Shown here: positions 4,104 to 52,229 of the stretch, piece after piece
Position numbering within the stretch: position 1 is the stretch's first letter
Layout of the letters: the number at the start of each line of letters is the position of its first letter
Assembly (NCBI GenBank): GCA_043797265.1
Contig: JAZDPV010000016.1
Location: 1 to 61,282, forward strand
Reading direction: 5' to 3'
From: an archaeon
GTDB taxonomy: Archaea; Nanobdellota; Nanobdellia; Pacearchaeales; GW2011-AR1
DNA: 61,282 bases
Translations under genes and position numbers: made by a program
Notes under the pieces: generated by a model
Databases searched by the model: none
What the model was told of the DNA's origin: nothing
What the model saw: the letters and a program-made list of their open reading frames with translations, nothing else

Positions 4104-4242
4104 CCCCTCATAGTTCAATGGTAGAACACGTGGCTGTAGAAGTGCGCTTGACGTTGTGCTGGGCACATAAGAATGATAGCGTTTTAGTCCGTATCGTGGC
4201 TGCAGAGCCCGCGATGTCCAAGTTCGATTCTTGGTGGGGGGA
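4104..4242 (+). tRNA. tRNA-Tyr (GUA) with a ~68-nt intron at the canonical 37/38 position
   Basis: Hand-folded cloverleaf:
- Acceptor stem CCCCTCA/TGGGGGG, giving C1-G72, with discriminator A73.
- D arm GTTC/GAAC.
- Anticodon stem CGTGG/CCGCG with loop CTGTAG|..|C.
- T arm CCAAG-TTCGATT-CTTGG.
The intron is ~4140..4207. Its 3' end (CTGCAG) pairs with the anticodon loop (CTGTAG) in a BHB-like way. Confidence 0.75.
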
Positions 4243-8975: not shown

Positions 8976-10565
8976 ATGGTTGAAAATGTTGGAGCGGAGG
9001 ACGCGCAGAGGATTTTGGGGCGGGACGCGCAGAGGAATAATATTTTGGCGGCGAGAGTTGTGGCAGAGACGGTTAAAACTACTTTGGGTCCGAAGGGAAT
9101 GGATAAGATGTTGGTGGACCGGGCTGGGAATATTATTGTGACGAACGACGGGGTGACGATTTTGAACGAGATGGATATTGAACATCCGGCGGCGAAGATG
9201 GTTGTCGAGATTGCGAAGACGCAGGACGATGAGGTTGGGGACGGGACTACGACGGCGGTGATGTTGGCTGGGAAATTTTTGGAGAATGCCGAGAAACTTT
9301 TGGACATGAAGATTCATCCGACGGTTATTACGCGGGGTTATCGATGGGCGGAGGAGAAGGCACAGGAGATTTTGAGGGATTTGGCTTTTGAGATTGCCTC
9401 GAAGGAAGATTTGGTGAAGGTTGCGCAGACGGCGATGACGGGGAAGGGCGTTGAGTATTTGAGAGAGAAGTTTGCGGAGATTGTTGTTGATGCTGTTGAT
9501 ATTATTTCAGAGGGGAAGAAAGTTGATTTGGGGAATGTCAGGATTGAGAAGAGGAAGGGTGGGGCGATTGAAAATTCGGAATTAATTCGGGGAATTGTTT
9601 TAGACAAGGAAAGGATTTCAATGGACATGCCGTCGAGGGTTGATGGGGCGAAGATTGTGTTGGTCGAGGACGCGCTGGAGGTCAAGGGGCCGGAGATGGA
9701 GGCGAAGATTTCTGTGTCGTCGCCGGAGCAGTTGCAGAGTTTTTTGAATCAGGAGGATTTTATTTTGAGGGAGAAGGTCGAGATGATTAAATCGTCGGGG
9801 GCGAATGTGGTTTTTGTGCAGAAGGGCGTTGATGAGTTGGTGCAGTATTATCTGGCGAAGGCGGGGATTTATGTCGCGAGGCGGGTTGCGAAGTCGGACA
9901 TGCAGAGTTTGGCGAAGGCGACGGGCGGGCGGATTGTTTCGAAGTTGGGCGAGTTGAGGGTCGAGGATTTGGGATTTGCTGAATATGTTGAGGAGAGGCG
10001 GAGTGGGGATGAGGGGATGACTTATATCATGGGGTGCAAGAATCCGAGGGCATTGACGATTTTGATTAGGGGCGGCAGCGAGCATATTGTTGACGAGGTT
10101 GAGCGGGCGGTGAAGGATGCGCTTGGTGATGTCGCGGCGGTCGTGAAAGATTCGAAAGTTGTCGCGGGCGGGGGCGCGGTTGAGATTGAGTTGGCGAAGA
10201 GGTTGAGGGAATTTGCGTCGGGGTTGAAGGGGCGTGAGAGGTTGGCGGTTGATGAGTTTGCTGGGGCTTTGGAGTTTGTGCCGACGACGCTGGCGGAGAA
10301 TGCGGGTATGGACCCGATTGATGTTTTGACGGAGTTGAGGGCGATGCATGACGCGGGGAATCGGGATTATGGTTTGAATTTGTTTAGCGGTGGCATTGAG
10401 GATAATATGGATAATGGGATTGTCGAGCCATTGAAAGTTAAGACGCAGGCGATTGCGTCAGCGACGGAGGTTGCGATTATGATTTTGAGGATTGATGATG
10501 TGATTGCGGCGCGGAAGAGTTCTGGCGGTTCGATGAAGATGGGCGGGATGGAAGGGTATGAGTAA
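8976..10565 (+). CDS. ths: thermosome subunit (group II chaperonin)
   Basis: '[33 protein letters not shown]', 'GDGTTTAV' and a C-terminal GGM-type tail. 529 aa. Confidence 0.95.
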
Positions 10566-10566
10566 A

Positions 10567-10601
10567 TAGGTGGTAGGAAGTAGGAGGTAGGCGGTGGGCG
10601 G
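10567..10601 (+). repeat. heptamer tandem array (TAGGNGG x5) starting 2 nt after the thermosome stop
   Basis: TAGGTGG TAGGAAG TAGGAGG TAGGCGG TGGGCGG. The TAGs at 10567, 10574 and 10581 fall in three different frames. Confidence 0.85.
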
Positions 10602-12937: not shown

Positions 12938-14125
12938 ATGAAAATTTTGAATGATTTTGATTTTAAGGGGAAGGCGGTTTTGGTTCGGAGTGATTTGAAT
13001 TGTGATGTTCGAGTTTCGCAGGTCGCAGGTCGCAGGTCGCAGGTCGCAAAGGTTATTGAGAGTGAGCGGGTTCGGGCGTCGGCGGAGACGATTAAAGAAT
13101 TGAAGCGGAAGGGGGCGAGGGTTGTCGTCGTTGCGCATCAAGGTCGGAAGGGGAAGGGTGATTTTGTTTCTTTAAAACAGCATTGTCGGTTGTTGAATAA
13201 GTATGTGAAGGTGAGGTTTGTCGAGGATGTTTGCGGGGCATTGGCTTTGAGTGAGATTGGGAAGTTGAAGGGTGGCGAAGTGATTTTGTTGGAGAATGTG
13301 AGGTTTGTCGCGGATGAAGATAAGCCAGAGAAGGGGAAACGGAATGAGTTGTATAAGTTGGTTGGGGTTTGTGATTATTTTGTTAGTGATGCGTTTTCGG
13401 TTTGTCATCGGGCGCAGGCGTCGGTGGTTTTGTTTCCTCGGTATCTTAAGAGTTTTACTGGACGACTTCTTGAGCGAGAGGTTGATGCTTTGAAGAAGAT
13501 TAAGTTGAAGAATTGTTTGTATGTTTTGGGCGGGGCGAAGCCAGCAGACAACATGAAATTGTTGTCTGCAGAAGTCAGAAGTCAGAAGTCAGAAGTCAGA
13601 AATAAAATATTGGCGTGTGGTTTGTTTGGGCAAATGTGCTTGATTGCGTCGGGAAAAAATCTTGGGGCACAGAATAAATATTTGAAAAGTGTCGTCGACG
13701 GTTACGATGGGATTTTGAAAGAGTTGAAGGGGCGATTGAAAAATGTTGAGATGCCGATTGATTTTGCGGTGAAGGTTGGTGGGCGACGGGTTGAGTTGGC
13801 GGTTGAAGATTTTCCGAGCGAGTATGAGATTTTTGATATTGGAAAAAAGACGCGGGAGAAATATGTTGGTGAAATTAAAAAGGCGAAGGCTGTTTTTATG
13901 AAGGGACCGGCCGGGGATTCTGCCGACGATAAATTTGCGAAAGGGACGGTTGCGTTGTTGCGGGCGGTTTCGAAGGTTGATTTTAGTTTGATTGGCGGTG
14001 GGCATTTGAATGATACGATAAAAAAATATCGGCTTAAAGGATTTGGGCATGTCAGTTTGTCGGGCGGGGCGTTGCTGAGTTATATTGCTGGAGAAAAACT
14101 TCCTGGAATTTTAGCCTTGAAATAA
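12938..14125 (+). CDS. pgk: phosphoglycerate kinase
   Basis: 'VLVRSDLN', 'VVVVAHQGR', 'LLENVRF', 'FVSDAFSVCHR' and 'LGGAKPADN'. Two heptamer-array-encoded inserts. Confidence 0.9.
   Translation: MKILNDFDFKGKAVLVRSDLNCDVRVSQVAGRRSQVAKVIESERVRASAETIKELKRKGARVVVVAHQGRKGKGDFVSLKQHCRLLNKYVKVRFVEDVCGALALSEIGKLKGGEVILLENVRFVADEDKPEKGKRNELYKLVGVCDYFVSDAFSVCHRAQASVVLFPRYLKSFTGRLLEREVDALKKIKLKNCLYVLGGAKPADNMKLLSAEVRSQKSEVRNKILACGLFGQMCLIASGKNLGAQNKYLKSVVDGYDGILKELKGRLKNVEMPIDFAVKVGGRRVELAVEDFPSEYEIFDIGKKTREKYVGEIKKAKAVFMKGPAGDSADDKFAKGTVALLRAVSKVDFSLIGGGHLNDTIKKYRLKGFGHVSLSGGALLSYIAGEKLPGILALK
13017..13048 (+). repeat. in-frame heptamer array (CGCAGGT x4.5) inside pgk
   Basis: Encodes VSQVAGRRSQVAK. 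Confidence 0.85.
13569..13603 (+). repeat. in-frame heptamer array (CAGAAGT x5) inside pgk
   Basis: Encodes AEVRSQKSEVRN. It shares an identical 31-nt block with the array in fba. Confidence 0.9.
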
Positions 14126-14151: not shown

Positions 14152-14261
14152 TGGGAAATTGGAGTAGGGAGGGAAAATTAGAGCGGGGAGGGAAAATTGG
14201 AGAGGGGAGGGAAAATTAGAGCGGGGAGGGGAAATTGGAGAGGGGAGGGGAAATTGGAGAG
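14152..14261 (+). repeat. 19-bp tandem repeat, ~5.8 copies (GGGAGGGAAAATTRGAGMG)
   Basis: Contiguous units at 14167, 14186, 14205, 14224 and 14243, plus a partial leading unit. Located between pgk and nagB. Confidence 0.9.
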
Positions 14262-18193: not shown

Positions 18194-18235
18194 TGCAATG
18201 AAAAGATTTTTAATTAGATAAACCTTTCTTTATTG

Positions 18236-19114
18236 ATGAGGTTTGATGTTGTGACTTTTGGCTCGGCGGTTGTGGACGCATTTGTGTCGACGGAGCAGAG
18301 GGGTAAGAAGTTTGAATACAAGCTTGGTTCTAAAATTTTGATTGATGACTTGAAGTTTGACGTCGGTGGCGGTGCGACGAATTCTGCGGTTGCGTTTGCG
18401 CGGCTTGGTTTGAAGACGGGTTGTATTTGTAAAGTTGGCGATGATAATAATGGCGAGGATGTTTTAGATTGTTTGAAAAAAGAGCGTGTGAAATTTTTGG
18501 GGAAAGTTGTCGGTGGTAAAACTGGTTATTCTGTGATTTTGGATAGTCGAGGCGGGGACAGAACGATATTGACTTTCAAGGGTCCGGGAAATGATGTGAG
18601 GTTTTTTGATATCGTGAAGTTTAGGACTAAGTGGTTGTATTTTTCGTCGGTGTTGGGCGAGAGTTTGCGGACGCAGATTAAATTGGCTGAGCGGATGAAA
18701 AGGTCCGGAGTGAAGTTGGCGTTTAATCCGAGTGAATATTTGATTCGGGCGGTTGATATTCGGAAGTTGTTGGTGATGAGTGATGTTGTTGTTTTGAATC
18801 GGGAAGAGTTTGATTTGGTCGGGAAGAAGTATGGGAAAAGTTTGCTGGAGATTTGTACGGGGGTTGTTGTTGTGACAGATAAGGATAAGATTATAACTTG
18901 TTATGTCGACGGGAAAAAGTATTTTTTGAAGCCGCATAAAATTAAAGTTGTCGAGAGGACCGGGGCGGGCGATGCGTTTGCGTCGGGGTTTGTTGCGGGG
19001 CAGATTGTCGGGATGTCGATTGAGAAATGTTTGGAGTTGGGGCTTGAGGAGAGTGAGGCCGTGATTGGGTTTTTTGGGGCGAAGAATAATCTTTTGAAGA
19101 GGAAGTTGAGATGA
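18236..19114 (+). CDS. PfkB-family sugar kinase
   Basis: 'DVGGGATNSAVAFARLG' and 'GAGDAFASGFVAG'. Start trimmed to the ATG. Confidence 0.8.
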   Translation: MRFDVVTFGSAVVDAFVSTEQRGKKFEYKLGSKILIDDLKFDVGGGATNSAVAFARLGLKTGCICKVGDDNNGEDVLDCLKKERVKFLGKVVGGKTGYSVILDSRGGDRTILTFKGPGNDVRFFDIVKFRTKWLYFSSVLGESLRTQIKLAERMKRSGVKLAFNPSEYLIRAVDIRKLLVMSDVVVLNREEFDLVGKKYGKSLLEICTGVVVVTDKDKIITCYVDGKKYFLKPHKIKVVERTGAGDAFASGFVAGQIVGMSIEKCLELGLEESEAVIGFFGAKNNLLKRKLR

Positions 19115-19124
19115 TTGAATTAAA

Positions 19125-19585
19125 ATTGCTCACGGATTGGCACGGATTAAAATTAAGATGAAACATGAATATATTACGGAGAAAATTATAAAAGTTTTTT
19201 ATGAAGTTTACAATGTTCTTGGGTATGGATTTTTGGAGAAGGTTTATGAAAATGCTTTGAAAATTGAGTTTGATAAAATTGGGTTGAGATATGTTAATCA
19301 GTATTCGATTAAAGTTTTTTATAAGGGAAAAATTGTAGGAGATTATGTTGCTGATTTTATTGTTGAGAATAAGGTTGTAGTTGAGGTGAAGGCGATTAAA
19401 AAATTTAGTAAGGTCGAAGAGTCACAGTTGTTGAATTATTTGACTGCTACAGATAAGGAAGTTGGGTTGTTGTTGAATTTTGGAGAAGAGGCGGAGTTTA
19501 AGAGGAAGGTTTATGATAATGAATTAAAGAAATATTTAGGTGAGGAATAATGGCTCACGGATTTCACGGATGGACACGGATTTTT
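19125..19585 (+). mobile_element. GxxExxY gene cassette bounded by CACGGAT-type repeats
   Basis: Left flank is ATTGCTCACGGATTGGCACGGATTAAAATT. Right flank is AATAATGGCTCACGGATTTCACGGATGGACACGGATTTTT. The interior is AT-rich. Confidence 0.5.
19158..19550 (+). CDS. GxxExxY family protein (PD-(D/E)XK-like)
   Basis: 'GYGFLEKVYENAL' (GxxExxY) and 'DFIVENKVVVEVKA'. Paralog of 22435..22836. Confidence 0.8.
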   Translation: MKHEYITEKIIKVFYEVYNVLGYGFLEKVYENALKIEFDKIGLRYVNQYSIKVFYKGKIVGDYVADFIVENKVVVEVKAIKKFSKVEESQLLNYLTATDKEVGLLLNFGEEAEFKRKVYDNELKKYLGEE

Positions 19586-19626: not shown

Positions 19627-20112
19627 ATGAAAACAGAATTGAGATATAGTATAATTCATGAAGTTATTCTCAGCCATGGGAATGTCGATAGAGCGTTTGA
19701 TTTAAATGAATATAAAAAATTAGAAAAGAAGTCCGAGAAGTTCGTAAAATTATATAATCAGAATATAAAGAAAATTGTTGAATTATTAGAGAAAAAAGTT
19801 GGTTCAAGAAAGTGGCAATATGAATTTGTTCCAATTTATATTGTTGATATTAATTTGGAGAAATGTTATTTGTTTTCAGGAGAGAAAAAAATTAACTGGA
19901 AAGGATATGGTGATCCAATTACAATTCTTTTAAGGCAGGAGAAAGTGATGTTGTTTACTTTAATTCATGAGCTTGCTCATAATTTGATTGATTTAGAAAC
20001 ACAAGTGAAGATGGGTGAAGAAAAAGCAGAGAATTATATTCATTTAGATGTTTCTCAATATGTTTGGGATCAATTAAATATAGGGGACTGGAGAGAGTAT
20101 ATTAAAAAATGA
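19627..20112 (+). CDS. hypothetical protein with an HExxH motif (putative metallopeptidase)
   Basis: 'LIHELAHNL'. Trimmed to the ATG (MKTELRYS...). AT-rich. Confidence 0.4.
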   Translation: MKTELRYSIIHEVILSHGNVDRAFDLNEYKKLEKKSEKFVKLYNQNIKKIVELLEKKVGSRKWQYEFVPIYIVDINLEKCYLFSGEKKINWKGYGDPITILLRQEKVMLFTLIHELAHNLIDLETQVKMGEEKAENYIHLDVSQYVWDQLNIGDWREYIKK

Positions 20113-20900
20113 AAGTTAAATTGAATAAGATTTTGCGGAAGGGGCGGGGAATGTTTTTGGCTTATGACCAGGGGATGGAGCATGGGCCGACGGATTTTAA
20201 TGACAGGAATGTTGACCCGGTTTATATTATTGATATTGCTCGACGGGGGAAATTTACGGCGTTGATTTTTCAGAAGGGTATTGCGGAGAAGTATAATTCT
20301 GAAATTAGGAAATCGGGGGTGCCATTGATTGTGAAGTTGAATGGGAAGACGAGTTTAGTTCGGGGCGAGCCGGTGTCGAGGCAGTTGTGTTCCGTCGGTG
20401 AGGCGGTGAAGTTGGGTGCGGTTGCGGTTGGTTATACGATTTATATTGGGAGCGAGTTTGAGAGTGAGATGATGGCGGAGTTCGAGAGGATTCAGGTTGA
20501 GGCGCATGAGAGAGGACTGCCGGTTGTTGTTTGGATTTATCCGCGTGGAAAATTTCTAAGAAATTTTCCACGAGAAGTCAGAAGTCAGAAGTCAGAAGTC
20601 AGAGATAAAAATAGGGAGTTGATGGCATATGCGGCGCGGGTTGGTTTGGAGATTGGTGCGGATATTGTTAAGTTGCAGTCGAACGGGGACAAGGAAGATT
20701 TGGCGTGGGCGGTTGAGTCGGCGGGGAAGTGCAAGATTGTCGTCGCTGGTGGAAAGAAGAAAAGCGAGGGGGAGTTGTTGGCTGAGGTTCGAGATGCGAT
20801 GAGTGTTGGTTGTGTCGGGGTCGCGGTTGGACGAAATGTTTGGCAGGCGGAGAAGCCGGTTGATGTTGCTGGTAAATTGAGGAAGATAATTTGGGGATGA
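20109..20900 (+). CDS. fba: class I fructose-bisphosphate aldolase, archaeal (DhnA/FbaB) type
   Basis: 'YDQGMEHGP', 'LIVKLNG', 'GADIVKL' and 'GVAVGRNVWQ'. Carries a heptamer-encoded REVRSQKSEVRD insert. Confidence 0.8.
   Translation: MKVKLNKILRKGRGMFLAYDQGMEHGPTDFNDRNVDPVYIIDIARRGKFTALIFQKGIAEKYNSEIRKSGVPLIVKLNGKTSLVRGEPVSRQLCSVGEAVKLGAVAVGYTIYIGSEFESEMMAEFERIQVEAHERGLPVVVWIYPRGKFLRNFPREVRSQKSEVRDKNRELMAYAARVGLEIGADIVKLQSNGDKEDLAWAVESAGKCKIVVAGGKKKSEGELLAEVRDAMSVGCVGVAVGRNVWQAEKPVDVAGKLRKIIWG
20572..20606 (+). repeat. in-frame heptamer array (CAGAAGT x5) inside fba
   Basis: GAGAAGT CAGAAGT x3 CAGAGAT. The 31-nt block AGAAGTCAGAAGTCAGAAGTCAGAAGTCAGA is identical to the one in pgk. Confidence 0.9.
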
Positions 20901-22345: not shown

Positions 22346-22875
22346 TTGCTCACGAATAACACGGATTGACACGAATTTTTTATTGGGGTAAATTATATGG
22401 AAGGTTTTTTATATAAGGAGTATTTGTTGGGCTGATGGAGTTTGAGGGGATTAGCGGGAAAGTTATTGAGATTTTTTATCGGGTTTATAATGGATTGGGT
22501 TATGGATTTTTGGAGAGTGTTTATGAGAGGGCGATGATGCACGAGTTTGTGAAGGAGGGGATTGAATTTGTTAATCAGTTTCCGATTAAGGTTTATTATG
22601 ACGGGGTTGTCGTCGGGAGTTTTGTTGCGGATTTTGTCGTTGAAGGGAATTTGGTGGTTGAGTTGAAAGCGGTGCGTGAGGTGTCTCAGGCAGATGAGAA
22701 TCAGTTGTTGAATTATTTGAGTTCGACAGACAAGGAAATAGGATTATTGTTGAACTTTGGTGAGAAACCGGAGATTAAACGAAAGGTTTATGATAATGTT
22801 CGGAAGAAAAATTATCGTGGTGGGCTCACGAAATAATTGCTCACGAATAAACACGGATTGACACGAATTTTTTTT
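22333..22875 (+). mobile_element. GxxExxY gene cassette flanked by ~50-bp direct repeats that include the tpiA stop region
   Basis: GCTCACGAAATAATTGCTCACGAATAACACGGATTGACACGAATTTTTT at 22333..22381 is repeated at 22824..22875 with one extra A. Both tpiA and the cassette ORF therefore end in LTK-stop. Confidence 0.7.
22435..22836 (+). CDS. GxxExxY family protein (PD-(D/E)XK-like)
   Basis: 'GYGFLESVYERAM' and 'DFVVEGNLVVELKA'. It has its own TATA (TTTTATATAA, about 20 nt upstream). Confidence 0.8.
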   Translation: MEFEGISGKVIEIFYRVYNGLGYGFLESVYERAMMHEFVKEGIEFVNQFPIKVYYDGVVVGSFVADFVVEGNLVVELKAVREVSQADENQLLNYLSSTDKEIGLLLNFGEKPEIKRKVYDNVRKKNYRGGLTK

Positions 22876-23341: not shown

Positions 23342-23349
23342 TTCTATAT

Positions 23350-23385
23350 ACTAACATTACTAACATTACTAACATTACTAATATT
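23350..23385 (+). repeat. 9-mer tandem repeat (ACTAACATT x4)
   Basis: ACTAACATT x3 followed by ACTAATATT, directly after the stop at 23341. Confidence 0.85.
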
Positions 23386-23445: not shown

Positions 23446-23661
23446 ATGAAGAAAAAAAGAGAAGATGCTAATTATAATCAAGAAAAAATTATAAAAGAAT
23501 TAAAAGAAAATCCGGAGGGATTTACTGTTTCTGAATTGTCCAAAAAAATTAGTGTTTCAAGGCAAACGGTATCCAATCATTTTGCATTTTTGGAAGGCGC
23601 AAAAAAAGTTAAAACGAGGCAGACAGGTATGGCTAAAATTTATTTTTGGGGTGGAAAATGA
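23446..23661 (+). CDS. winged-helix DNA-binding protein
   Basis: 'FTVSELSKKISVSRQTVSNHFAFLEGAKKV'. Stop is ATGA-overlapped with the next gene. Confidence 0.6.
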   Translation: MKKKREDANYNQEKIIKELKENPEGFTVSELSKKISVSRQTVSNHFAFLEGAKKVKTRQTGMAKIYFWGGK

Positions 23662-25067
23662 GCAAGAACTTTTTTATTTTAATGGGCGTGTTTATTTTGG
23701 CATTAACTATAAATATTGTTTCAGCGTCGGATGTTTTGGTTTGGCAGGGGCAGTATTATACTGGGACGACTTTTAATGTGGGGACTTATGAATTTAATTT
23801 TAGTGTTTATGATGCTTTGACGGGAGGGAGTGTTTGTTATTCTAATACGACGAGTTTGACGACGGGAAATTTTGGAGAGTGGAGAACTGAGCAGAGCGGT
23901 GTGAGTTCTGCTTGTAGTAATGTTTCGAAGGATTATTATTTGAATATAAATATCGATGGGGTGGACCAAACTCCGAGGAGAAGGGTGGCGGTTTGGAATT
24001 TTTTAAGGAAGGATGTTGATGAAGTTTCAACAGGAAATTTAGTGTTGCATGGTGTATTGCAGGGTTTAAGCCCGCTGAAGTTACAGGATGAAATTAATTT
24101 TCTTAAATCTGATGGAATTGTTACATCAGCATTATATAATGCTCCAAGAGAACTTTCATCCACACTTCCATCTGTTTTTGCAGATTCATTAATCCATGAT
24201 ATTATACAAGAAACAAATGATTATGGGATGCAGGAATGCTTTTGGGATGAAAATACAGAGACAATGCAAATGTGTATTAGTGGGTCGTATTTACCATACA
24301 GAGCAACTACTGTTTCAAGAAGTTTTCAGGTAGTGGGGAACACAACAAACAAGCCAGTAAATGAAAATTTTACTTTATGTGAAGGAAATAATTATGTTGA
24401 TTGCGACAGCGATGCGACGGGGGCGGATTTGTTGGTTGAGGATGATATTGAGGCGATTGGAAGTATATTCTCGCAGGAAAATATAACTGCGAATTATTTT
24501 ATCGGGGATGGGAGTTTGTTGACGGGAATTTCAGGAGGGGGAAATCCATTTAACCAAGTTTGTAATACAACTTCAAATGTTACTTTCAATACAATTACTG
24601 GAACAGGGTTAATTACCGGCGTAGGATTAATAGCCAAAAGTACTAGTGGAACAAAGAATTTTACTATAAACTATACTGGAACTGAATGGGATTTATCTCA
24701 ATCGGGAACATCAGGGGAAATTCATTTTATGACTAATGCCCATAATCCCCAAATATCTGCGGGAAGATCTGATTCGGGAGGTTCTTTCTTTATAGATATG
24801 CATAATGGAAGACCAATAAAACTTAGTACTATTAGCAAAGGAGAGGTTCAAGTGGGTGCTAATCTTACCGTTGGAGAAAATATTAACGTAACAGGAAGTA
24901 TAACTACTGGAGGAAAAATTCAAGGAGATTATTATGCTAATGATAGTTCGGAGGGAATAACTAATCTGGGAGGTTATAGTATTTGTCTTTCAGTTAATGG
25001 TGGAGGTGGATGTGATACTTGGTGCACATTACAAATTAAGAATGGTTTAATTACGGGATGTAGTTGA
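23658..25067 (+). CDS. secreted protein, fibre/adhesin-like
   Basis: Signal peptide FFILMGVFILALTINIVSA. Many N-x-S/T sites. 'YFIGDGSLLTGISGG' is reminiscent of tail-fibre repeats (weak). Confidence 0.5.
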   Translation: MSKNFFILMGVFILALTINIVSASDVLVWQGQYYTGTTFNVGTYEFNFSVYDALTGGSVCYSNTTSLTTGNFGEWRTEQSGVSSACSNVSKDYYLNINIDGVDQTPRRRVAVWNFLRKDVDEVSTGNLVLHGVLQGLSPLKLQDEINFLKSDGIVTSALYNAPRELSSTLPSVFADSLIHDIIQETNDYGMQECFWDENTETMQMCISGSYLPYRATTVSRSFQVVGNTTNKPVNENFTLCEGNNYVDCDSDATGADLLVEDDIEAIGSIFSQENITANYFIGDGSLLTGISGGGNPFNQVCNTTSNVTFNTITGTGLITGVGLIAKSTSGTKNFTINYTGTEWDLSQSGTSGEIHFMTNAHNPQISAGRSDSGGSFFIDMHNGRPIKLSTISKGEVQVGANLTVGENINVTGSITTGGKIQGDYYANDSSEGITNLGGYSICLSVNGGGGCDTWCTLQIKNGLITGCS

Positions 25068-26386: not shown

Positions 26387-26491
26387 ATGAAAGTGGTGAG
26401 GCGGCCGTGGGGAGCGAGAATTTTTGATTCTCGAGGTTTCAGGTTTCAGGTTTCAGGTTTCAGGTGTTTGTTTACTTGGAGGTTTCGATGA
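26387..26491 (+). other. relic N-terminus / upstream ORF of the cupin gene
   Basis: The ATG lies 20 nt after a TATA-like GTTTTTAAAG. It encodes MKVVRRPWG..., compared with MKKIVRPWG for the real gene. The TGA stop overlaps the real ATG (ATGA). Confidence 0.5.
26433..26467 (+). repeat. heptamer array (CAGGTTT x5)
   Basis: GAGGTTT CAGGTTT x3 CAGGTGT, preceded by the hairpin CGAGAAT-TTTTG-ATTCTCG (26415..26433). Confidence 0.9.
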
Positions 26492-26850
26492 AAAAAATTG
26501 TGCGTCCGTGGGGAAATTTTTTGGAGTTTGTTAAGAATAGGGAGTGCACGGTGAAGATTTTGAGGGTAAGGGCTTTTGGAGAACTGAGTTTGCAGAAGCA
26601 TAATCGTCGTCGGGAAATGTGGTATTTTTTGAGTGACGGATGGGCGAGTTTCGCTAGAGGTCAGAAGTCAGAAGTCAGAACTCAGAAATTTAAGAAGGGG
26701 GACGTTCTCGAGATACCTAAAGGAAGTTTACATCGGTTGTTTTCAAAAGGCGGGCGAGTTGAGGTTTTGGAAATTTCGTTTGGGACTTTTGATGAGAGGG
26801 ACGAGGTGAGGTTGGAGGATAAGTATGGGAGAGTAGGGGGTAGATTGTAG
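26488..26850 (+). CDS. cupin-domain protein (mannose-6-phosphate isomerase type II C-terminal-like)
   Basis: 'VRPWGNF', 'LSLQKHNRRREMWY' and 'IPKGSLHRL'. Contains an in-frame heptamer insert. Confidence 0.65.
   Translation: MKKIVRPWGNFLEFVKNRECTVKILRVRAFGELSLQKHNRRREMWYFLSDGWASFARGQKSEVRTQKFKKGDVLEIPKGSLHRLFSKGGRVEVLEISFGTFDERDEVRLEDKYGRVGGRL
26655..26689 (+). repeat. in-frame heptamer array (CAGAAGT-type x5) inside the cupin gene
   Basis: TAGAGGT CAGAAGT CAGAAGT CAGAACT CAGAAAT. Encodes GQKSEVRTQK. Confidence 0.9.
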
Positions 26851-26868
26851 ATGGTAGATAGTAGGATT
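26834..26868 (+). repeat. TAG-heptamer array spanning the cupin stop and the ROK start
   Basis: TAGGGGG TAGATTG TAGATGG TAGATAG TAGGATT. The third TAG is the cupin stop codon. Confidence 0.85.
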
Positions 26869-27688: not shown

Positions 27689-27784
27689 AATCGCTTCGCG
27701 ATTGGGGATATTTTTGCTTTGCAAAAATGGGGGTACAAAAAATCGAAGATTTTTTGTGGTGATATGAAAATCTTTGATTTTCAT
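27689..27784 (+). other. four consecutive perfect hairpins with 3-nt loops
   Basis: AATCGC-TTC-GCGATT; TTTTTGC-TTT-GCAAAAA; CAAAAAATC-GAA-GATTTTTTG; ATGAAAATC-TTT-GATTTTCAT. Confidence 0.85.
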
Positions 27785-27797
27785 GGGCGTTGGAGGA

Positions 27798-28166
27798 ATG
27801 ATGTGGAATTATAAAAATTTGGAAGTTTGGAAGAGGGCACATGAGTTGATGAAGAATGTGTATAAAGTTATTGATGCGTTTCCTGAGAAGGAGAGGTATA
27901 ATGCGGTTTTCCAGATTAGGAAAGCGGTTTTTAGTGTTCCGAGCAATATTGTTGAGGGTTCGGGAAAGGATACTAATAAAGATTTTGCTCATTATTTGGA
28001 TAATGCGATTGGGAGTTTGAAGGAAGTTGAGTATCAGATTTTTGCGTCATGGGAGTTGGGTTATGTTGGCGAAGAGAAATATAAAGAGTTAAAAAAGGAG
28101 ATGACTATATTTGGGATGAAATTGAGGGCTTATCGGAGGTTTATTGGAGGAGGTGAGAAAAAATGA
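27798..28166 (+). CDS. four-helix-bundle protein (TIGR02436 family, formerly '23S rRNA intervening sequence protein')
   Basis: 'YKNLEVWKRAHELMKNVYKV', 'RKAVFSVPSNIVEGSG' and 'AIGSLKEVEYQI'. GGAGGA lies before the ATG. Stop is ATGA-overlapped with the next gene. Confidence 0.8.
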   Translation: MMWNYKNLEVWKRAHELMKNVYKVIDAFPEKERYNAVFQIRKAVFSVPSNIVEGSGKDTNKDFAHYLDNAIGSLKEVEYQIFASWELGYVGEEKYKELKKEMTIFGMKLRAYRRFIGGGEKK

Positions 28167-35975: not shown

Positions 35976-36449
35976 ATGGTGAAGAAACTGAAGGTTGGGT
36001 TTTTTTCGTTTACGTGTTGTGAGGGGTGCGTGGTTTCGTTTTTGGAAATTTTGAATGAGAAGTTTTTTGAATGGCGGGACAAGGTTGATATTTTGTATTT
36101 GCGGGCGCTGAAAAAGGACGGGGAGATTGCGCCGATGGATGTTGCGTTTGTCGAGGGTGCGGTGTCGACGGAGAGCGAGGTCCGGAAGTTGAAGTTGATT
36201 CGAAAGAACGCGGGGAAGTTGGTCGCGATTGGGAGTGGGGCGATTAATGGATGGCCGTCGAATTTTAGGAATAATTTTAAGGGCGAGAAAAAAAAGAGGG
36301 TGGATGTTTTAGTGAAGAAGATGGGGCAGATTAAGAAAGTTTTGCCGTTGAAGGATGTCGTGAAAGTTGATGATGAGGTGCCGGGTTGCCCGATTGACGA
36401 AAAGATTTTTATCGAGAAGATGGAGAGGTTGATGGGGGGTAGGGGGTAG
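35976..36449 (+). CDS. [NiFe]-hydrogenase small subunit, short group-3 (delta-like) form
   Basis: 'FFSFTCCEGC' and 'VPGCPID'. Only 157 aa, with only proximal-cluster-type Cys residues visible. Confidence 0.75.
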   Translation: MVKKLKVGFFSFTCCEGCVVSFLEILNEKFFEWRDKVDILYLRALKKDGEIAPMDVAFVEGAVSTESEVRKLKLIRKNAGKLVAIGSGAINGWPSNFRNNFKGEKKKRVDVLVKKMGQIKKVLPLKDVVKVDDEVPGCPIDEKIFIEKMERLMGGRG

Positions 36450-36488
36450 GGGGTAGGGGGTAGATGGTAGGGGGTAGGAGGTAGGGAG
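36440..36488 (+). repeat. TAG-heptamer array x7 (TAGGGGG-type) containing the small-subunit stop codon
   Basis: TAGs at 36440, 36447 (the stop codon), 36454, 36461, 36468, 36475 and 36482. Confidence 0.9.
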
Positions 36489-36498
36489 AGGAAAAAAT

Positions 36499-37266
36499 TG
36501 GAGGAGAAAATGCATAAGTTTGATTTGGATTTGAAGAATAGTAAAATATTTAAATCTATGAATATTAATTGTATTAGCGCTTTTCGGAGCGTGAGTATAT
36601 CCCCCGGTGATCTTTTGGGGTTGCCGGATGATTTTATTTTTTTTGGAGTGTGTTTTTAATGGAAGATGTTGTGGTTTTTGTTGATGATGGTTTTTTTGGA
36701 TTGGTAAAAAAACATTTTCAAAAAGAAACTAAGAAGAGGGGTTGTTTTCTTCAGACTTTTAGAAATATTTGTAAAAATGAAAATTTAAATTTGAAACATT
36801 TATTTTTTTATACTGCGCCTCCTTATCAAAATAAAATTTCTGATAATAAAGAAGATTTTTTAAAAAAGAAATATGATCTTTTGGTAAAGATGTTGAAAAA
36901 TAAGAAGTGGATTACGGTTCGAGAGGGAAGATGCCAGCGATTGAAAATAGGTGATGAATTTAAATATTTTCAAAAGGGTGTTGATTCTTGGATAGTTGCT
37001 GATATGTGTTTAATGAAAGAAGATTTCCCGGAAGTTAAGAAAATAATTTTGATTTCTTCTGATTCAGATTTTGCTCCGATAATTAAATATCTTAAGGAAA
37101 GAAATAAGTTTGAGGTGATATTGTATACTTATTTTGATAAGAAGAGAAATAGTTGTTTTTCTCTAAGTAATTATCTTTTGCAAGCTTGTTCTAAGTGGGT
37201 TAGAATGACCAGCTCTTTTTTTAATGGAGGAGAAAATGCATAAGTTTGATTTGGATTTGAAGAATA
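36499..37266 (+). mobile_element. NYN-gene cassette with perfect 42-bp flanking direct repeats
   Basis: TGGAGGAGAAAATGCATAAGTTTGATTTGGATTTGAAGAATA occurs at 36499..36540 and 37225..37266. The repeat holds the RBS and first 10 codons of the hydrogenase large subunit. Confidence 0.8.
36659..37243 (+). CDS. NYN-domain (LabA/DUF88-like) predicted RNase
   Basis: 'VVVFVDDGFF', 'KGVDSWIVADM' and 'ILISSDSDFAPII'. The ATG is TAATG-overlapped with a 49-aa leader ORF (36510..36659) that begins at the stranded hydrogenase start. Confidence 0.75.
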   Translation: MEDVVVFVDDGFFGLVKKHFQKETKKRGCFLQTFRNICKNENLNLKHLFFYTAPPYQNKISDNKEDFLKKKYDLLVKMLKNKKWITVREGRCQRLKIGDEFKYFQKGVDSWIVADMCLMKEDFPEVKKIILISSDSDFAPIIKYLKERNKFEVILYTYFDKKRNSCFSLSNYLLQACSKWVRMTSSFFNGGENA

Positions 37267-40939: not shown

Positions 40940-41048
40940 TTTAAGTTTGAATTTAGGACGCGGATGTCGGGGCTGTAGAGATTAACTTTGTCGCCTTCGT
41001 CAAGATAGAATTCTATGAATTTTTGTGGTTGTTTTTTTTCAGGATTTT
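40936..41048 (-). pseudogene. displaced, frameshifted 3'-end remnant of the XPD-like helicase gene
   Basis: 41 nt (40955..40995) are identical to 41706..41746. 40996..41048 is about 90% identical to 41796..41848. Relative to the intact gene it has a 51-nt gap and a 1-nt deletion. Confidence 0.75.
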
Positions 41049-41848
41049 GATGCTGAGAAATTTGTTAGGTCTTTGATAAATTCTGTATTTATTATTTGTG
41101 TGGATGAGGCTACTTTTTTTAGATGGTATGAAATTGATTTTTTGTTTCCAATTGCTACGTATATTATTTTTTTGTTGAGCCTGTTGATTATTGATGAGAT
41201 AACGCTTGAGAAGTCGCCGTCGTTTGATATCAGGAAAGCTTTGTCGTAATTATTGTTTATGGCGTCGAAGATTAAATCTTGTGCTATGTTTATATCTGTT
41301 GCTTTTTCTATGTAGAATGTTTTGTTGTCTTTTTTGTGTTTTTCTAATCTGCCGAATATTATTTTTAGTTTTTCTATTTTTCTTATTTTTTCGAAGAAGC
41401 GTTGTTGTTCTGCATACATTTTTGGGTTTGATTCTCCCACTGGAGAGATGTAATAATTAATTTTGACTAACTTGTATTTTTTTGCGAGTTTTTTGCAGAA
41501 TTTTTCTATGTCGATTTTTTGGTTAAAAGTTTTCTTAATGGAAAAATAAAAATTATTTCCGTCGATATATATTATCACTTTTTTCTTATCAGAATTCATA
41601 TTATAAAAAACATGGGGTTAGTTTCCTATCCCCATGGTGTTAATTAATGTTGATAATTATTTAGAGTTATTAAATCTTTCTGTTGTTGCTATTTGATTTG
41701 CGTTGAGGACGCGGATGTCGGGGCTGTAGAGATTAACTTTGTCGCCCTTGAATCGGATGCCTCTTGCGATTTTTTGATAGAGGTCTCGTCGGGCTTTGTC
41801 GAGATAGAATTCCATGAATTTTTGTGGTTGTTCTTTTTTTAGGATTTT
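40955..41848 (-). mobile_element. NYN-gene cassette flanked by duplicated helicase 3'-end sequence
   Basis: The intact helicase C-terminus (41657..41848) and the remnant (40936..41048) bracket a hairpin plus the NYN gene. Confidence 0.7.
41039..41599 (-). CDS. NYN-domain (LabA/DUF88-like) predicted RNase
   Basis: 'VIIYIDGNNFY', 'KATDINIAQDL' and 'FLISNDGDFSSVI'. Its last codons run into the duplicated helicase sequence. Confidence 0.75.
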   Translation of the reverse strand: MNSDKKKVIIYIDGNNFYFSIKKTFNQKIDIEKFCKKLAKKYKLVKINYYISPVGESNPKMYAEQQRFFEKIRKIEKLKIIFGRLEKHKKDNKTFYIEKATDINIAQDLIFDAINNNYDKAFLISNDGDFSSVISSIINRLNKKIIYVAIGNKKSISYHLKKVASSTQIINTEFIKDLTNFSASKS

Positions 41849-43630
41849 CCAGAAGAGGCCCTGGATGTTTGGGTAGGGAAATTTTGTGATGACGATTGAG
41901 TTGCATTTGTCGCCGGGGAAGTCGACGCCTCGCGCGCATTTTGTCGTGAATAAAATATCTGTTTCGCCCGATGTGAATTTGTCGACGGCGGTGTTGCCTT
42001 TTGATTGGAGCTCGCTGAGTTTTTCCTGGGTGATTAGGTTTTCGAGTTTTAGGGTTTCGTTTTCTGAATTTGTCGGGAGGTCGCTGAATGCGGAGATGTG
42101 GACGAGGGTTGGCGGTTCTGCTTTTGCCATGCACATGTCGAGGATTTTCAGGTATTGGTTTCGCGTGATTGTTCCGTCTTTGAAATTTTGGAAGGCGCAA
42201 TTTTTTTCGAGGCCGGTTCGTTGTTTGTTGATTGTGCCGGGATTTTGTGTTTCAGCCTCGATGGTTTTGAAATCTTTTAGCCCGAAGATGTCTTTGAGAA
42301 CTTGCTCGGAGTGGAGCGTGCCGGACATCATGACAAGGACGTTGTTTTGCTCGATTAGTTCTTTTAGTTTTTGGGCGAGATTGATTGAGACGATGGTGAC
42401 GAAAGTAGTTGGTAGGTGGTAGGGGGTAGAAGGTGGTTGATTGAATAATTTGTTTTGAACAGAATCTTTGTTGGTTTTTTCTATCGAGATGTAGGTTTCG
42501 TCGAGGAGGTTCTTGAAAGATTGGGCGATTTCGACGAGCGTGTTGTAGTAGTTTAGTTCTTCGTCTTCGGCGAGGTTCGGGTTTTCGATTGCGGTCTTGA
42601 TTATTTTTATAATTGGAGATTGTTTTATTTTTTGGATTTCGATTTCTTCGGAGTAAATGGCGTCGTTGATTTCGCGGATTAATTTTTTTATAATTGTCTT
42701 GTCTGTTTGTTTTTGCGGGGCGAGGTTTGAGAGCGCGGTGTGGAGCCGGTTGAGATTTATTTTGCGCTCGTTGGCGAAGGAGTCGAGGAATTCGTCGCAT
42801 TCGTCGACGATGTCGAGGTCGGTTTTTGGTTTTCGTCCGATCATTGTTTCGATTTGATATTTTGCCGAGTTGAAGATTAGGACGTCGGCGTTGGCGTAGG
42901 CTTCGCATTGGTCGTAGTAGGCGCAACCTTTTTTTCGCTGGAAGAGTGCGAATTCTTTTCCGCAAGTTGCTTCGTATTTTATTTTTTTGAAGTCGGTGAG
43001 GCCTTTTGGTTTTATGTCGGCGGGGATGAGCGGGGACCAGTAGGGGCAGGCGGGGGCGATGTTCATTCTTCTGATGTCCGACGCTGTTTTGAAATCTTCC
43101 GGACTGACCAGTGGATTTTTGTTGATGTATCCCAAAAGTTTTGCCGTGTTTTTTTCGCGGATTTCGATTGTGCAAGGGAGGTCTGGCGAATCTGCAGTTG
43201 GTAGTTGGCAGTTGGTAGTTGGTAATTCTTTTTCTGCGAATGGACATCGGAAATTATTTCGGCCTTTTATGACGGCGATGTCGAGGGGTTTTTTGTTTTG
43301 CTTGAGGATGAATTTGTTTTTAGTGTAATCTTTTTCGTATTGTTCCTGGAGGGATTTGATTGGGACGATGATTGATGTTTTTTTGAAATGGCGCGCGAGG
43401 TTGAGGGCGATTGCTGATTTGCCGGTGCCACAGACGCCCTTGATGAAAATTAATTTGTTGCCGGCGTTGATTGCGTCGAGGATTTCCTTAACGACGTCGG
43501 CCTGGGTTTTGTTATTTGAGAAAAGCAGGGGCTTGAGTTCTTCTCCTTCTGTGTCGAAGGGACCGAAGAACTTGCTGTTAGATTGTCGCTTGTCGCTTGT
43601 CGCATCTGTTCGTTTATATAATGACCACAT
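41657..43630 (-). CDS. XPD/Rad3-like (DinG family) superfamily 2 DNA helicase
   Basis: Walker A 'GVCGTGKS', 'VDECDEF', FeS-type Cys residues ('NFRCPF','LPCT','ACPYW') and C-terminal 'ARGVDFPGD'. Confidence 0.8.
   Translation of the reverse strand: MWSLYKRTDATSDKRQSNSKFFGPFDTEGEELKPLLFSNNKTQADVVKEILDAINAGNKLIFIKGVCGTGKSAIALNLARHFKKTSIIVPIKSLQEQYEKDYTKNKFILKQNKKPLDIAVIKGRNNFRCPFAEKELPTTNCQLPTADSPDLPCTIEIREKNTAKLLGYINKNPLVSPEDFKTASDIRRMNIAPACPYWSPLIPADIKPKGLTDFKKIKYEATCGKEFALFQRKKGCAYYDQCEAYANADVLIFNSAKYQIETMIGRKPKTDLDIVDECDEFLDSFANERKINLNRLHTALSNLAPQKQTDKTIIKKLIREINDAIYSEEIEIQKIKQSPIIKIIKTAIENPNLAEDEELNYYNTLVEIAQSFKNLLDETYISIEKTNKDSVQNKLFNQPPSTPYHLPTTFVTIVSINLAQKLKELIEQNNVLVMMSGTLHSEQVLKDIFGLKDFKTIEAETQNPGTINKQRTGLEKNCAFQNFKDGTITRNQYLKILDMCMAKAEPPTLVHISAFSDLPTNSENETLKLENLITQEKLSELQSKGNTAVDKFTSGETDILFTTKCARGVDFPGDKCNSIVITKFPYPNIQGLFWKILKKEQPQKFMEFYLDKARRDLYQKIARGIRFKGDKVNLYSPDIRVLNANQIATTERFNNSK
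42406..42436 (+). repeat. heptamer array (TAGNNGG x4), antisense to and in frame within the helicase gene
   Basis: TAGTTGG TAGGTGG TAGGGGG TAGAAGG on the + strand. Encodes PPSTPYHLPTT on the - strand. Confidence 0.85.
43195..43225 (+). repeat. heptamer array (YAGTTGG x4), antisense to and in frame within the helicase gene
   Basis: CAGTTGG TAGTTGG CAGTTGG TAGTTGG. Encodes LPTTNCQLPTA on the - strand. Confidence 0.9.
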
Positions 43631-46865: not shown

Positions 46866-47512
46866 TGAAATCTGCTATTTTGATGACATTGCCCCAGTGG
46901 GATGATGTGACAGAATATTTGCATGCATTTTCTCAGAGTATTATAAATACTGCGAAAGATGCTGGTGTTCCAATTAATGTTCTCGAAAGAGAAAGTGCGA
47001 CGAGAAATAATTTTGAATTTGAACTTAGAGATAATCATCGGTTAATTGTTTTTAACGGGCATGGTTCTGACGATATAATTGCGGGGCATAAGAATGAAGT
47101 GATTATAAAAAATGGGGAGAATGAGAATTTATTGAAAGAGAAAATAACTTACGCCCGTTCTTGTTTCTCTGCGAAAGGGATTGGTGTTTCTTCAATGAAA
47201 AATAGCGACGCAGGGTGTTTTATTGGATATACTTTACCTTTCATGTTTTATAATGATATTACTTGGTCCAGCAATCCTTTAAAGGATTCTATCGCGAGAA
47301 TCTTTTTTACGACGACAAATGTGATTCCGAACGATATAATAAGAGGCAAATCTTGTATTGAGGCTAATGAAAATTCTAAAAGAGATATGTTGAAAGCGAT
47401 AAAGAAAGCTTTGTTAAGGAAAGATAATATGGACTCACAATCAATAGTGGAAGCTCTTTGGAATAATTATTCTTTTCAGGTGGTTGTTGGAAATAAAAAT
47501 GTTAAGTTTTAG
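46865..47512 (+). CDS. hypothetical protein with a possible clan-CD (caspase/gingipain-like) His-Cys dyad
   Basis: 'LIVFNGHGS' and, 34 residues later, 'ITYARSCFS'. Each follows a hydrophobic strand, as in clan CD peptidases. Motif-level evidence only. Confidence 0.3.
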   Translation: MKSAILMTLPQWDDVTEYLHAFSQSIINTAKDAGVPINVLERESATRNNFEFELRDNHRLIVFNGHGSDDIIAGHKNEVIIKNGENENLLKEKITYARSCFSAKGIGVSSMKNSDAGCFIGYTLPFMFYNDITWSSNPLKDSIARIFFTTTNVIPNDIIRGKSCIEANENSKRDMLKAIKKALLRKDNMDSQSIVEALWNNYSFQVVVGNKNVKF

Positions 47513-47544
47513 CTGTTAGTTATTAGTCGTTAGTTTTTAGGGAA
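47510..47544 (+). repeat. TAG-heptamer array x5 starting with the stop codon of the 215-aa gene
   Basis: TAGCTGT TAGTTAT TAGTCGT TAGTTTT TAGGGAA. Confidence 0.85.
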
Positions 47545-51711: not shown

Positions 51712-51755
51712 GGGGTATGGCAATATTTTATAAAGTTTGAGTGGCGGGAGGTTGC

Positions 51756-52229
51756 ATGGGTGCGAAAGAATTCGATTTTTATGTTTTTATTGATTATTCT
51801 GAAAATTATTTGGGATACTTAATAATTGAAAAAGAAAAGATTAGAAATTTTCTTCCGAAAATTTCCAGGTTTGCACATTATAGAGAATTAAAGCATAAGA
51901 AAGCATATCTTGATTCTGTAAGGAAAATTGTTGACAAAAATAAAATTTGTTCTTATTTTTATAAGTTAAAGATTCGGAAGACAGAGGCGACTCCTGAAAT
52001 TTATTCTGATATTTTGGATTTTTTGAAAAAGCATGATAATTGTTTGATTTTTGTTTGTGTTGATAATAAGCAGTTTAGGAATTTTAGTAGAATTGTGCAT
52101 ATCATCGACGGTAAAAATATTAAAGTAGTTAAGGAGAGTGAATTGAAAAAGAATACGTCGGAGTATAAAATAAATTTGGTTTTGGATAGTTTATTGAATC
52201 TTGCTAGGTTGGGGAATGATAAATTTTGA
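51756..52229 (+). CDS. hypothetical protein (AT-rich insert between surface-protein genes)
   Basis: 157-aa ORF with its own TATA (ATTTTATAAAG). Hydrophobic strands ending in D ('FYVFIDYS', 'IFVCVDNK') hint at a PIN/RNase-H-like fold (weak). Confidence 0.4.
   Translation: MGAKEFDFYVFIDYSENYLGYLIIEKEKIRNFLPKISRFAHYRELKHKKAYLDSVRKIVDKNKICSYFYKLKIRKTEATPEIYSDILDFLKKHDNCLIFVCVDNKQFRNFSRIVHIIDGKNIKVVKESELKKNTSEYKINLVLDSLLNLARLGNDKF

Follow-up and report, generated by a model that had tools for sequence, protein, structure and literature searches.

Heptanucleotides are the most abundant class of simple sequence repeats (SSRs) with units of 5-11 nt in prokaryotes (PMC4679880, PMC4692102), and according to the account in PMC4679880, Mrazek (2007) suggested that this abundance stems from a 7-nt polymerase footprint. 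TAACTGA repeats are found in Beggiatoaceae, cyanobacteria and Bacteroidetes, with 169 sets in one genome (PMC4679880), and GGGNATC repeats, with a preference for four units, in Xanthomonas and Nostoc (PMC4692102). Both families are scattered over the genome, lie mostly between genes and have no known origin. Genomes have their own favourite units at many loci, no spreading mechanism is known, and the dispersal of one unit over many loci of a genome is without an accepted explanation (PMC4679880, PMC4692102). Perfect and fast-evolving repeats inside open reading frames (ORFs) have been described in the Borg elements of Methanoperedens, which have a C-poor sense strand and repeat units divisible by three (PMC9879509). 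Here, we analyse the heptamer arrays of contig JAZDPV010000016.1 from a Pacearchaeales archaeon (61,282 nt, the full stretch being called the window below), in particular those in the genes for phosphoglycerate kinase (pgk), fructose-bisphosphate aldolase (fba) and a cupin protein.

Our preferred reading, to which we assign a probability of about 0.65, is that the arrays are heptanucleotide SSRs which in one DPANN lineage are mostly intragenic and translated, which occupy old sites, and whose content turns over in concert, sometimes with another array as the template. The comparison draws on the DNA of relatives (fetched contigs, designated by L-numbers such as L121) and on codon alignments in register. 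Four independent assemblies (L131, L211, L212 and L356) are referred to as lineage Z. Repeats in the window were detected with Tandem Repeats Finder (TRF) and with our own scan for periods 2 to 15, gene identities were taken from Pfam, and structures are AlphaFold2 models, judged by the predicted local distance difference test (pLDDT).

An identical block of 31 nt, (AGAAGTC)4AGA = AGAAGTCAGAAGTCAGAAGTCAGAAGTCAGA, is present in pgk (13570-13600) and fba (20573-20603), as a sequence-only reading of the window had claimed. Downstream of the block, both genes continue with A or G and then ATAAAA, and TRF reports 100% matches for both arrays. The cupin gene contains TAGAGGTCAGAAGTCAGAAGTCAGAACTCAGAAAT (26655-26689), which has the same AGAAGTC unit with three mismatches. 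CAGAAGT thus occurs at three loci of the window, and a terminal variant unit, CAGA(A/G)AT, closes all three arrays (in the case of pgk, the one at site 2 of two). For the 14-mer CAGAAGTCAGAAGT, allowing up to two mismatches, 12 matches were found in the window, against 0.26 expected from dinucleotide shuffles. In fba, a preceding C at 20571 gives an 8-nt first unit, CGAGAAGT. The ORF translations of the arrays are AEVRSQKSEVRN in PGK, REVRSQKSEVRD in FBA and GQKSEVRTQK in the cupin protein.

The host genes are identified by PF00162 (PGK), by the aldolase family PF01791, with homologues named fructose-bisphosphate aldolase (FBA), and by PF01050, MannoseP_isomer, of the mannose-6-phosphate isomerase type (cupin). 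Homologues of PGK and FBA belong to DPANN archaea labelled as Pacearchaeota, Woesearchaeota or Nanoarchaeia. The window PGK has 395 amino acids (aa) against typically about 376, and the window FBA 263 against typically 250. Ortholog alignments bear out the earlier statement that the inserts sit where homologs are shorter: the array at pgk site 2 is a 30-nt insert (27-30 nt relative to L123, L126 and L127), the fba array accounts for the variable portion of an insert of 39 nt (13 aa), and the cupin insert measures 18-21 nt.

The sequence-only reading had also taken the identity of the arrays as a sign of recent spread. In the sense of recent insertion this does not hold, because the sites are occupied in relatives down to 54% PGK identity (L165), and because L128 (86% aa identity) carries a decayed counterpart of the fba array. 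At pgk site 1, where L125 is 30 nt shorter, all copies share one register, with the unit TCGCAGG in the window, TCGCGGG in L123, L131 and L211, TCGGAAG in L121 and L126, and TCGGAAA in L127. The array is decayed in L124 and there is none in L125. At pgk site 2, the units are CAGAAGT in the window, CAGGCGT in lineage Z, CAGGTCG in L121, CAGGTCA in L125 and GAGKTGG in L124. The distant L165, which has the same extreme strand skew, carries GGTCGCA and GGTCGTC units there, and L123, L126 and L127 are without an array. The pgk gene of L121 has two more arrays (sites 3 and 4), and the site-4 insert is again 30 nt long. At the fba site, the perfect CAGAAGT array of the window corresponds to CAGATGT, CAGAGGT and CAGAAAT units in L128, to CAGAGGA in L129 and to TAGGNGG in L130. 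Lineage Z (L211) and distant orthologs, which read GKGVKGKKK at this place, have no insert. At the cupin site, L130 has a decayed array, and L129 and L211 lack the insert.

Orthologous arrays are thus internally uniform and about five units long, and their place and register are kept, but the unit differs by lineage. Accordingly, orthologs have an insert at the same position as the window proteins, but with different peptides. Between the window and lineage Z, the flanking DNA is about 80% identical, and hence about 20% different. Each of the two site-2 arrays is 100% uniform, and they differ from each other at the same two of the seven positions of every unit. Uniform arrays with fixed differences at the same positions, in flanks that have diverged by about 20%, require repeated homogenisation, i.e. 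concerted evolution. At the level of the aligned sequences, the insertion sites are shown to be old and shared among relatives, and the content of the arrays to have turned over in concert and in place.

Units are also shared within genomes. In a test based on a rotation-invariant distance between units (15 arrays from four genomes), arrays at different sites of the same genome had a mean distance of 1.78, with 6 of 23 pairs identical. Arrays at the same site in different genomes had a mean distance of 2.54, and none of the 13 pairs were identical (permutation p = 0.016). CAGGTCG, for example, is found at three sites of L121. At pgk site 2, the relatives have CAGG-type or GAGG-type units, and only the window has CAGAAGT, which is the unit of its own fba array. 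Array-to-array copying within the genome, confined to the array, would be the most parsimonious explanation of the pgk/fba identity, and in this form the earlier suggestion of templated copying is retained. Turnover would then proceed by repeated slippage, or by microhomology-primed short-patch repair within the array, and another array of the same genome might occasionally serve as the template. Purifying selection would retain only in-frame and stop-free outcomes. Templating by another array would account for the same unit and terminal variant in pgk site 2, fba and the cupin gene of the window, together with different units in the orthologs. As the arrays lie in conserved enzymes, orthologs supply fixed coordinates, by which persistent sites, kept length, array-wide sweeps of the unit and sharing within a genome can be followed. 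The ortholog series is direct comparative evidence for concerted turnover, and probably for turnover between loci as well.

The arrays are compatible with translation for an arithmetic reason. (AGAAGTC)3 reads R-S-Q-K-S-E-V, and the three units (21 nt) run through all three frames. Since 7 is coprime with 3, any frame of a stop-free array gives the same cyclic heptapeptide (for AGAAGTC, the hydrophilic EVRSQKS). The cupin gene had been said to carry the same array in another frame. The array is there, though decayed, but the frame is uninformative, because the cyclic peptide is the same in every frame. The complement, GACTTCT, has TGA in every frame, and therefore an AGAAGTC array fits a gene in one orientation only. 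Units with a stop in the sense of the gene are confined to intergenic positions and gene ends, and stop-free units lie within ORFs. Every orthologous array examined (more than 20 arrays in at least nine lineages) is in frame. Net insert lengths are multiples of three, mostly 30 nt, which supports the earlier argument that the total length must keep the frame. Coprimality makes a stop-free heptamer unit "frame-proof", and lets a non-triplet repeat colonise essential genes.

The AlphaFold2 model of PGK has a mean pLDDT of 90.5, and drops below 50 only at residues 214-219, which correspond to site 2. Site 1 (residues 21-40) is modelled with reduced confidence (pLDDT about 70). In the FBA model (mean pLDDT 87.1), confidence falls below 50 at residues 154-164 (PREVRSQKSEV), which connect a barrel strand to the following helix, and also over a short unrelated stretch (residues 23-26). 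In these models, the array sites are shown to fall in segments without predicted secondary structure, and the inserts are probably disordered loops on otherwise mostly confident folds. Heptamer arrays thereby put disordered loops into enzymes that serve as phylogenetic markers.

Among tandem-repeat periods 2 to 15, only period 7 is enriched in the window: it has seven perfect arrays, whereas every other period has 0-2. Relaxing the criteria raises the number of heptamer arrays to about 12 (Table 1), seven in ORFs (two in pgk, one each in fba and the cupin gene, three in a helicase gene) and five in intergenic regions or at gene ends.

Table 1. Heptamer arrays of the window, with their position, strand and genetic context.
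Array	Position	Strand	Context
pgk site 1: (TCGCAGG)4.7	13014..13050 (repeat 13016-13048)	+	30-nt in-frame insert, reads SQVAGRRSQVA
pgk site 2: (CAGAAGT)4 + terminal CAGAAAT	13569..13603	+	ORF 12938..14125, in-frame, reads AEVRSQKSEVRN
fba: GAGAAGT (CAGAAGT)3 CAGAGAT	20572..20606	+	class I FBA ORF 20109..20900, reads REVRSQKSEVRD
cupin, decayed: AGAGGTC AGAAGTC AGAAGTC AGAACTC AGAAATT	26655..26689	+	ORF 26464/26488..26850
(TAGGCGG)5	10567..10601	+	just past the stop codon of the thermosome gene 8976..10565
(AGGTTTC)4.6	26434..26465	+	directly upstream of / overlapping the cupin start; absent from lineage Z
GTAGAT(N) array	26840..26864	+	junction of cupin stop codon and ROK kinase start codon
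(GGGGGTA)7.4	36435..36486	+	TAG in every frame; Oxidored_q6 hydrogenase-subunit ORF 35976..36449 stops within
GTAG(N)TGG-type array	42405..42429	+	within minus-strand XPD/Rad3-like helicase gene 41657..43630; G-rich strand still +
(AGTTGGT)4	43196..43227	+	within minus-strand helicase gene 41657..43630; other strand reads PTTNCQL-type residues
(TTGTCGC)3	43579..43607	+	within minus-strand helicase gene 41657..43630, near the N-terminus
TTAGYNG-type array	47500..47540	+	intergenic, stop-containing

Several features of individual arrays deserve mention. (GGGGGTA)7.4, which provides the stop codon of the hydrogenase small-subunit-like gene, is a strong G-quadruplex candidate, and in this respect comparable to the G-quadruplex-forming GGGNATC heptamer repeats (PMC4692102). 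The TTAGYNG-type array belongs to a related, stop-containing and intergenic TTAGCTN / TGTTAGT family that is also found in L121 (967-1002) and L165 (7336-7370), and that may be a conserved non-coding signal of these three high-skew genomes. A YAGR core (CAGA, CAGG, TAGG or TAGA) is common to many units. A 5' CGAG junction precedes 7 of 19 perfect arrays, against a background of 5%, but these represent only three to four independent sites. Examples are window 20569-20573, 26430-26434 and 13009-13013, L121 10080-10084 and L129 10539-10543, where the first unit reads C-G-AG... and not CAG....

Repeats of other periods are few. The short gap between pgk and the glucosamine-6-phosphate isomerase gene contains a 19-nt (38-nt) tandem repeat, AAATTGGAGAGGGGAGGGA, in 5.6 copies (14156-14261). 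Relatives have an ORF of 382-400 aa in this gap (L121 11397-12599, L124 4130-5278), which the window lacks. A 9-nt tandem repeat, TACTAACAT, in 4.1 copies (23349-23385), is intergenic and upstream of a large gene for a secreted or surface protein (23646..25067). Apart from the heptamers, no other perfect array of the window reaches a comparable length.

Some of the contigs of relatives have peculiarities at or near arrays. The pgk genes of L123 (42-1226) and L131 (2601-3788) are 100% identical over the first approximately 520 nt and then about 75% identical, and only L131 has the site-2 array. This split is either a strain mosaic, produced by homologous recombination, or a chimeric short contig. 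L124 (9656-9686) ends and L130 (1-34) begins within a (GGAAGTC)n array of a PfkB sugar-kinase gene, and both contigs derive from run SRR22388041. The PfkB gene of the window (18233..19114) has no such array. The contig ends within the array indicate that heptamer arrays break assemblies, and thus fragment metagenome contigs. A 304-aa PGK (P0015) was considered as a frameshifted allele and rejected, as it is cut by a contig end and identical to lineage Z.

The arrays go together with an unusual base composition. The window contains 11.4% C, 29.0% G and 33.8% T, its genes are nearly all on the + strand, and the GC skew is about 0.5 overall, 0.3-0.56 in most 2-kb bins, and about 0.2 at the minus-strand genes. 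The relatives have 9-11% C and the same asymmetry, which most other Pacearchaeota loci lack. In a survey of 80 PGK loci from species-representative genomes, together with the fetched contigs, about 21 period-7 arrays were found in about 155 kb of loci with a GC skew of at least 0.44 (window, L121-L131, L165). The 77 other Pacearchaeota/Woesearchaeota PGK loci (skew mostly below 0.35), about 1.2 Mb in all, contained one. Within these groups, the heptamer arrays are thus shown to be restricted to a small high-skew clade of Pacearchaeota/Woesearchaeota-like DPANN archaea. As markers, they point to a DPANN lineage whose replication or repair is unusual, with one strand containing about 10% C. The idea that heptamer arrays generally require GC skew was rejected, since bacterial array loci have a median absolute skew of 0.03-0.04, and the link exists only in this archaeal group.

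The window has further features that do not involve the arrays. NYN-domain genes are scattered and non-syntenic (window 36650-37243, 41039-41599 on the minus strand and 51741-52229; L121 8713-10004 and 17039-17599), and may be selfish or defence-related. GxxExxY/PDDEXK_3-like genes are found at 19137-19550 and 22435-22836, and a gene for a four-helix protein of the 23S-rRNA-IVP type at 27774-28166. A 139-nt tRNA match in Rfam (4104-4242), which ARAGORN does not report, is probably an intron-containing archaeal tRNA.

Heptamer arrays with the unit of the window are not peculiar to archaea. (AGAAGTC)4 is present at 120 or more genome loci from many bacterial phyla, isolate genomes included, and in 23 viral contigs. 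However, a composition-matched stop-free control, (ACAGAGT)4, also yields at least 120 genome loci. The idea that AGAAGTC is a special, horizontally spread element was therefore dropped, and heptamer arrays appear to be generic. Among the matches listed, the bacterial loci contain 214 perfect period-7 arrays, against at most six for any other period; the run-length mode of arrays of at least 28 nt is 33-34 nt for both AGAAGTC and ACAGAGT; and some genomes carry one heptamer unit on many contigs. A strictly preferred length was nevertheless rejected, because the length distribution of bacterial arrays that had not been selected by the search mostly decays, with bumps at 20, 27, 33-34 and 41-42 nt, and the 33-34-nt mode is clear only from 28 nt upwards. 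In the archaeal clade, arrays comprise 4.4-4.7 units, with perfect runs of 29-33 nt. Also among the matches listed, in-frame AGAAGTC arrays of 4-5 units occur in bacterial genes for RecJ, chorismate synthase, PheT and the E2 acyltransferase of 2-oxoacid dehydrogenase. Translated heptamer arrays in housekeeping genes are thus not confined to the archaeon of the window. Bacterial genes with in-frame arrays, from several phyla, were recorded at L004 6188-7984, L035 247-1557, L076 625-2826 and L105 2019-3371.

The identity of the pgk and fba arrays could be explained differently. A small mobile cassette of about 31-33 nt, (AGAAGTC)n, recently and independently inserted in pgk, fba and the cupin gene, would account for the identical 31 nt with a similar 3' end, for equal net inserts (30 nt) at three pgk sites, for the same array in frame in unrelated bacterial genes and in the 23 viral contigs, and for the recurrent CGAG junction. 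We consider it improbable, since relatives already have heptamer arrays at all three sites, so that the sites pre-date the present unit, and the fba array in particular has its decayed ortholog in L128. Moreover, no terminal repeats, target-site duplication or hairpin were found at the arrays, the Pfam scans of the window contain no transposase-like gene, the control heptamer is equally widespread, and the CGAG junctions come from only about three to four independent sites. A hairpin or a miniature inverted-repeat transposable element (MITE) was rejected, as the predicted DNA folds (-0.1 to -2.0 kcal/mol, z-scores -0.1 to 1.2) are no better than those of shuffles. An archaeal intron with a bulge-helix-bulge (BHB) motif or an intein was rejected as well: there is neither structure nor Rfam match, and with 11 aa the insert is much smaller than any intein could be. 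The Rfam search of the window gave only tRNAs, and no RNA family at the arrays. The opposite view, that each array arose purely by slippage in situ from a local seed and that the identity in pgk, fba and cupin gene reflects convergence, has candidate seeds in its favour. The un-inserted pgk site 2 of L123 has CGAGGTCGGAAA, which resembles the unit CAGGTCG, and the un-inserted fba of L211 has GGAGTCAAGGGA, which resembles the unit GAAGTCA. In addition, tandem repeats can arise quite generally by microhomology-mediated tandem duplication (bioRxiv 10.64898/2026.02.28.708716). Nevertheless, we give this view little credence. It is very improbable that two or three genes of one genome converge on an identical 7-mer in four copies with the same terminal variant. 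The site-2 unit of the window is 2-4 of 7 positions off all orthologs and none off its own fba array, and 30-nt inserts are not multiples of 7.

The location of the arrays in ORFs suggests contingency loci, in which changes of the unit number would act as on/off switches for pgk, fba and further genes in a host-dependent symbiont. Phase-variable genes classically have a repeat inside the ORF with a unit length not divisible by three, and DPANN archaea are host-dependent, so that glycolysis might be conditionally dispensable. However, all orthologous arrays examined are in frame, the copy number is equal in the four assemblies of lineage Z, and the arrays have only 4-5 units. Furthermore, the hosts are PGK, FBA, a mannose-6-phosphate-isomerase-type cupin and an XPD-like helicase, rather than surface, host-interaction or restriction-modification genes, which makes a switching role very unlikely. 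The genome-specific units that are common to several loci, the YAGR core of many units and, among the matches listed, a run-length mode of about 33-34 nt that is independent of unit, taxon and coding status could also point to a trans-acting templated writer. A reverse transcriptase or primase-polymerase would copy a 7-nt template reiteratively, and rewrite arrays genome-wide with the current unit. Yet different units coexist in a genome and even in a gene (pgk site 1 and site 2), the Pfam and Rfam scans of the window reveal neither a candidate enzyme nor a template, and the evidence is wholly indirect, so that such a writer seems highly improbable. In another reading, arrays are actively copied between loci by a process that is dedicated to them or specific to the lineage, be it templated repair primed by microhomology or a reiterative polymerase, and the patches written are about 30-34 nt long irrespective of the unit. 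We regard this as possible, but doubtful. If it were true, the high-asymmetry DPANN clade would be a natural system for tracing heptamer dispersal site by site via orthologs of essential genes. Finally, chimeric joins at low-complexity repeats might have created the arrays as an assembly or sequencing artefact. The break of L124 and L130, from the same run, within a (GGAAGTC)n array and the divergence of L123 and L131 after about 520 identical nucleotides count in favour of this view. An artefact is hardly conceivable, however, for arrays that are in frame, that have both flanks collinear with the same orthologs, that recur in independent assemblies from different samples, and that are found in isolate genomes too.

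Some observations weigh against concerted turnover of old arrays with occasional templating, as we propose it. Copy-number polymorphism was not found among the four independent assemblies of lineage Z, which all have an identical (CAGGCGT)4. One metagenome scan with the flank of pgk site 2 found only lineage Z, with an invariant array. As the assemblies show no length polymorphism, ongoing slippage is deduced from the phylogeny. Simple slippage would shift the length by 7 nt and break the frame, and 30 nt, the size of most inserts, is no multiple of 7. The events would therefore have to involve several units at once or be imprecise, unless out-of-frame intermediates are in some way tolerated. 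The test for unit sharing is small (15 arrays, four genomes), and three of the identical pairs are in a single gene, pgk of L121. The relatives were compared at the level of contigs. Finally, no reverse transcriptase, transposase or integrase was detected in Pfam scans of 36 window ORFs, and no responsible enzyme was identified.

Among described systems, the arrays are most similar to the heptamers classified as long simple sequence repeats (LSSR) or short tandemly repeated repetitive sequences (STRR), such as the cyanobacterial STRR, TAACTGA and GGGNATC repeats. As in that class, 7-nt units are arranged head to tail, with few units per array (4.4-4.7 here), a genome repeats one or a few preferred units at many loci, and the stop-containing orientation is kept out of ORFs. 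Unlike in that class, where arrays are mainly intergenic or at the periphery of proteins, the window arrays are mostly inside conserved housekeeping genes, in internal loops. With seven arrays in ORFs against five in intergenic regions or at gene ends, they are not predominantly intergenic, and the host is a DPANN archaeon. Turnover of the unit in place at orthologous sites, as seen here, is not reported in PMC4679880 or PMC4692102. The similarity to the amino acid tandem repeats (aaTRs) of Borgs (PMC9879509) consists in perfect and fast-evolving nucleotide-level repeats in ORFs, which encode disordered segments, are genome-specific and have flanking partial repeats. A C-poor sense strand (12.5% C in Borgs, about 11% here) and co-oriented genes are also shared. 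However, the unit is 7 nt here, only the overall insert length (18-39 nt net) preserves the frame, and units are reused at different loci.

Phase-variable contingency loci share with the window arrays a repeat in the ORF with a unit that is not a multiple of three. They differ from them in that the window arrays and their orthologs show no length variation or out-of-frame allele among assemblies, reside in housekeeping genes and have few copies. The Rickettsia palindromic elements, which Ogata et al. are said to have described in 2000, are reportedly palindromic sequences of about 100-150 bp with hairpin potential that are tolerated within protein-coding genes. Like these elements and in-frame MITEs, the arrays are dispersed repeat DNA that is translated into additional surface segments of otherwise conserved proteins. 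Unlike the Rickettsia elements, they are only about 33 nt long, consist of direct repeats and have no fold. Overall, the arrays are a mostly intragenic, archaeal variant of a known and mechanistically unexplained class of heptanucleotide SSRs, and it is this variant that is new.

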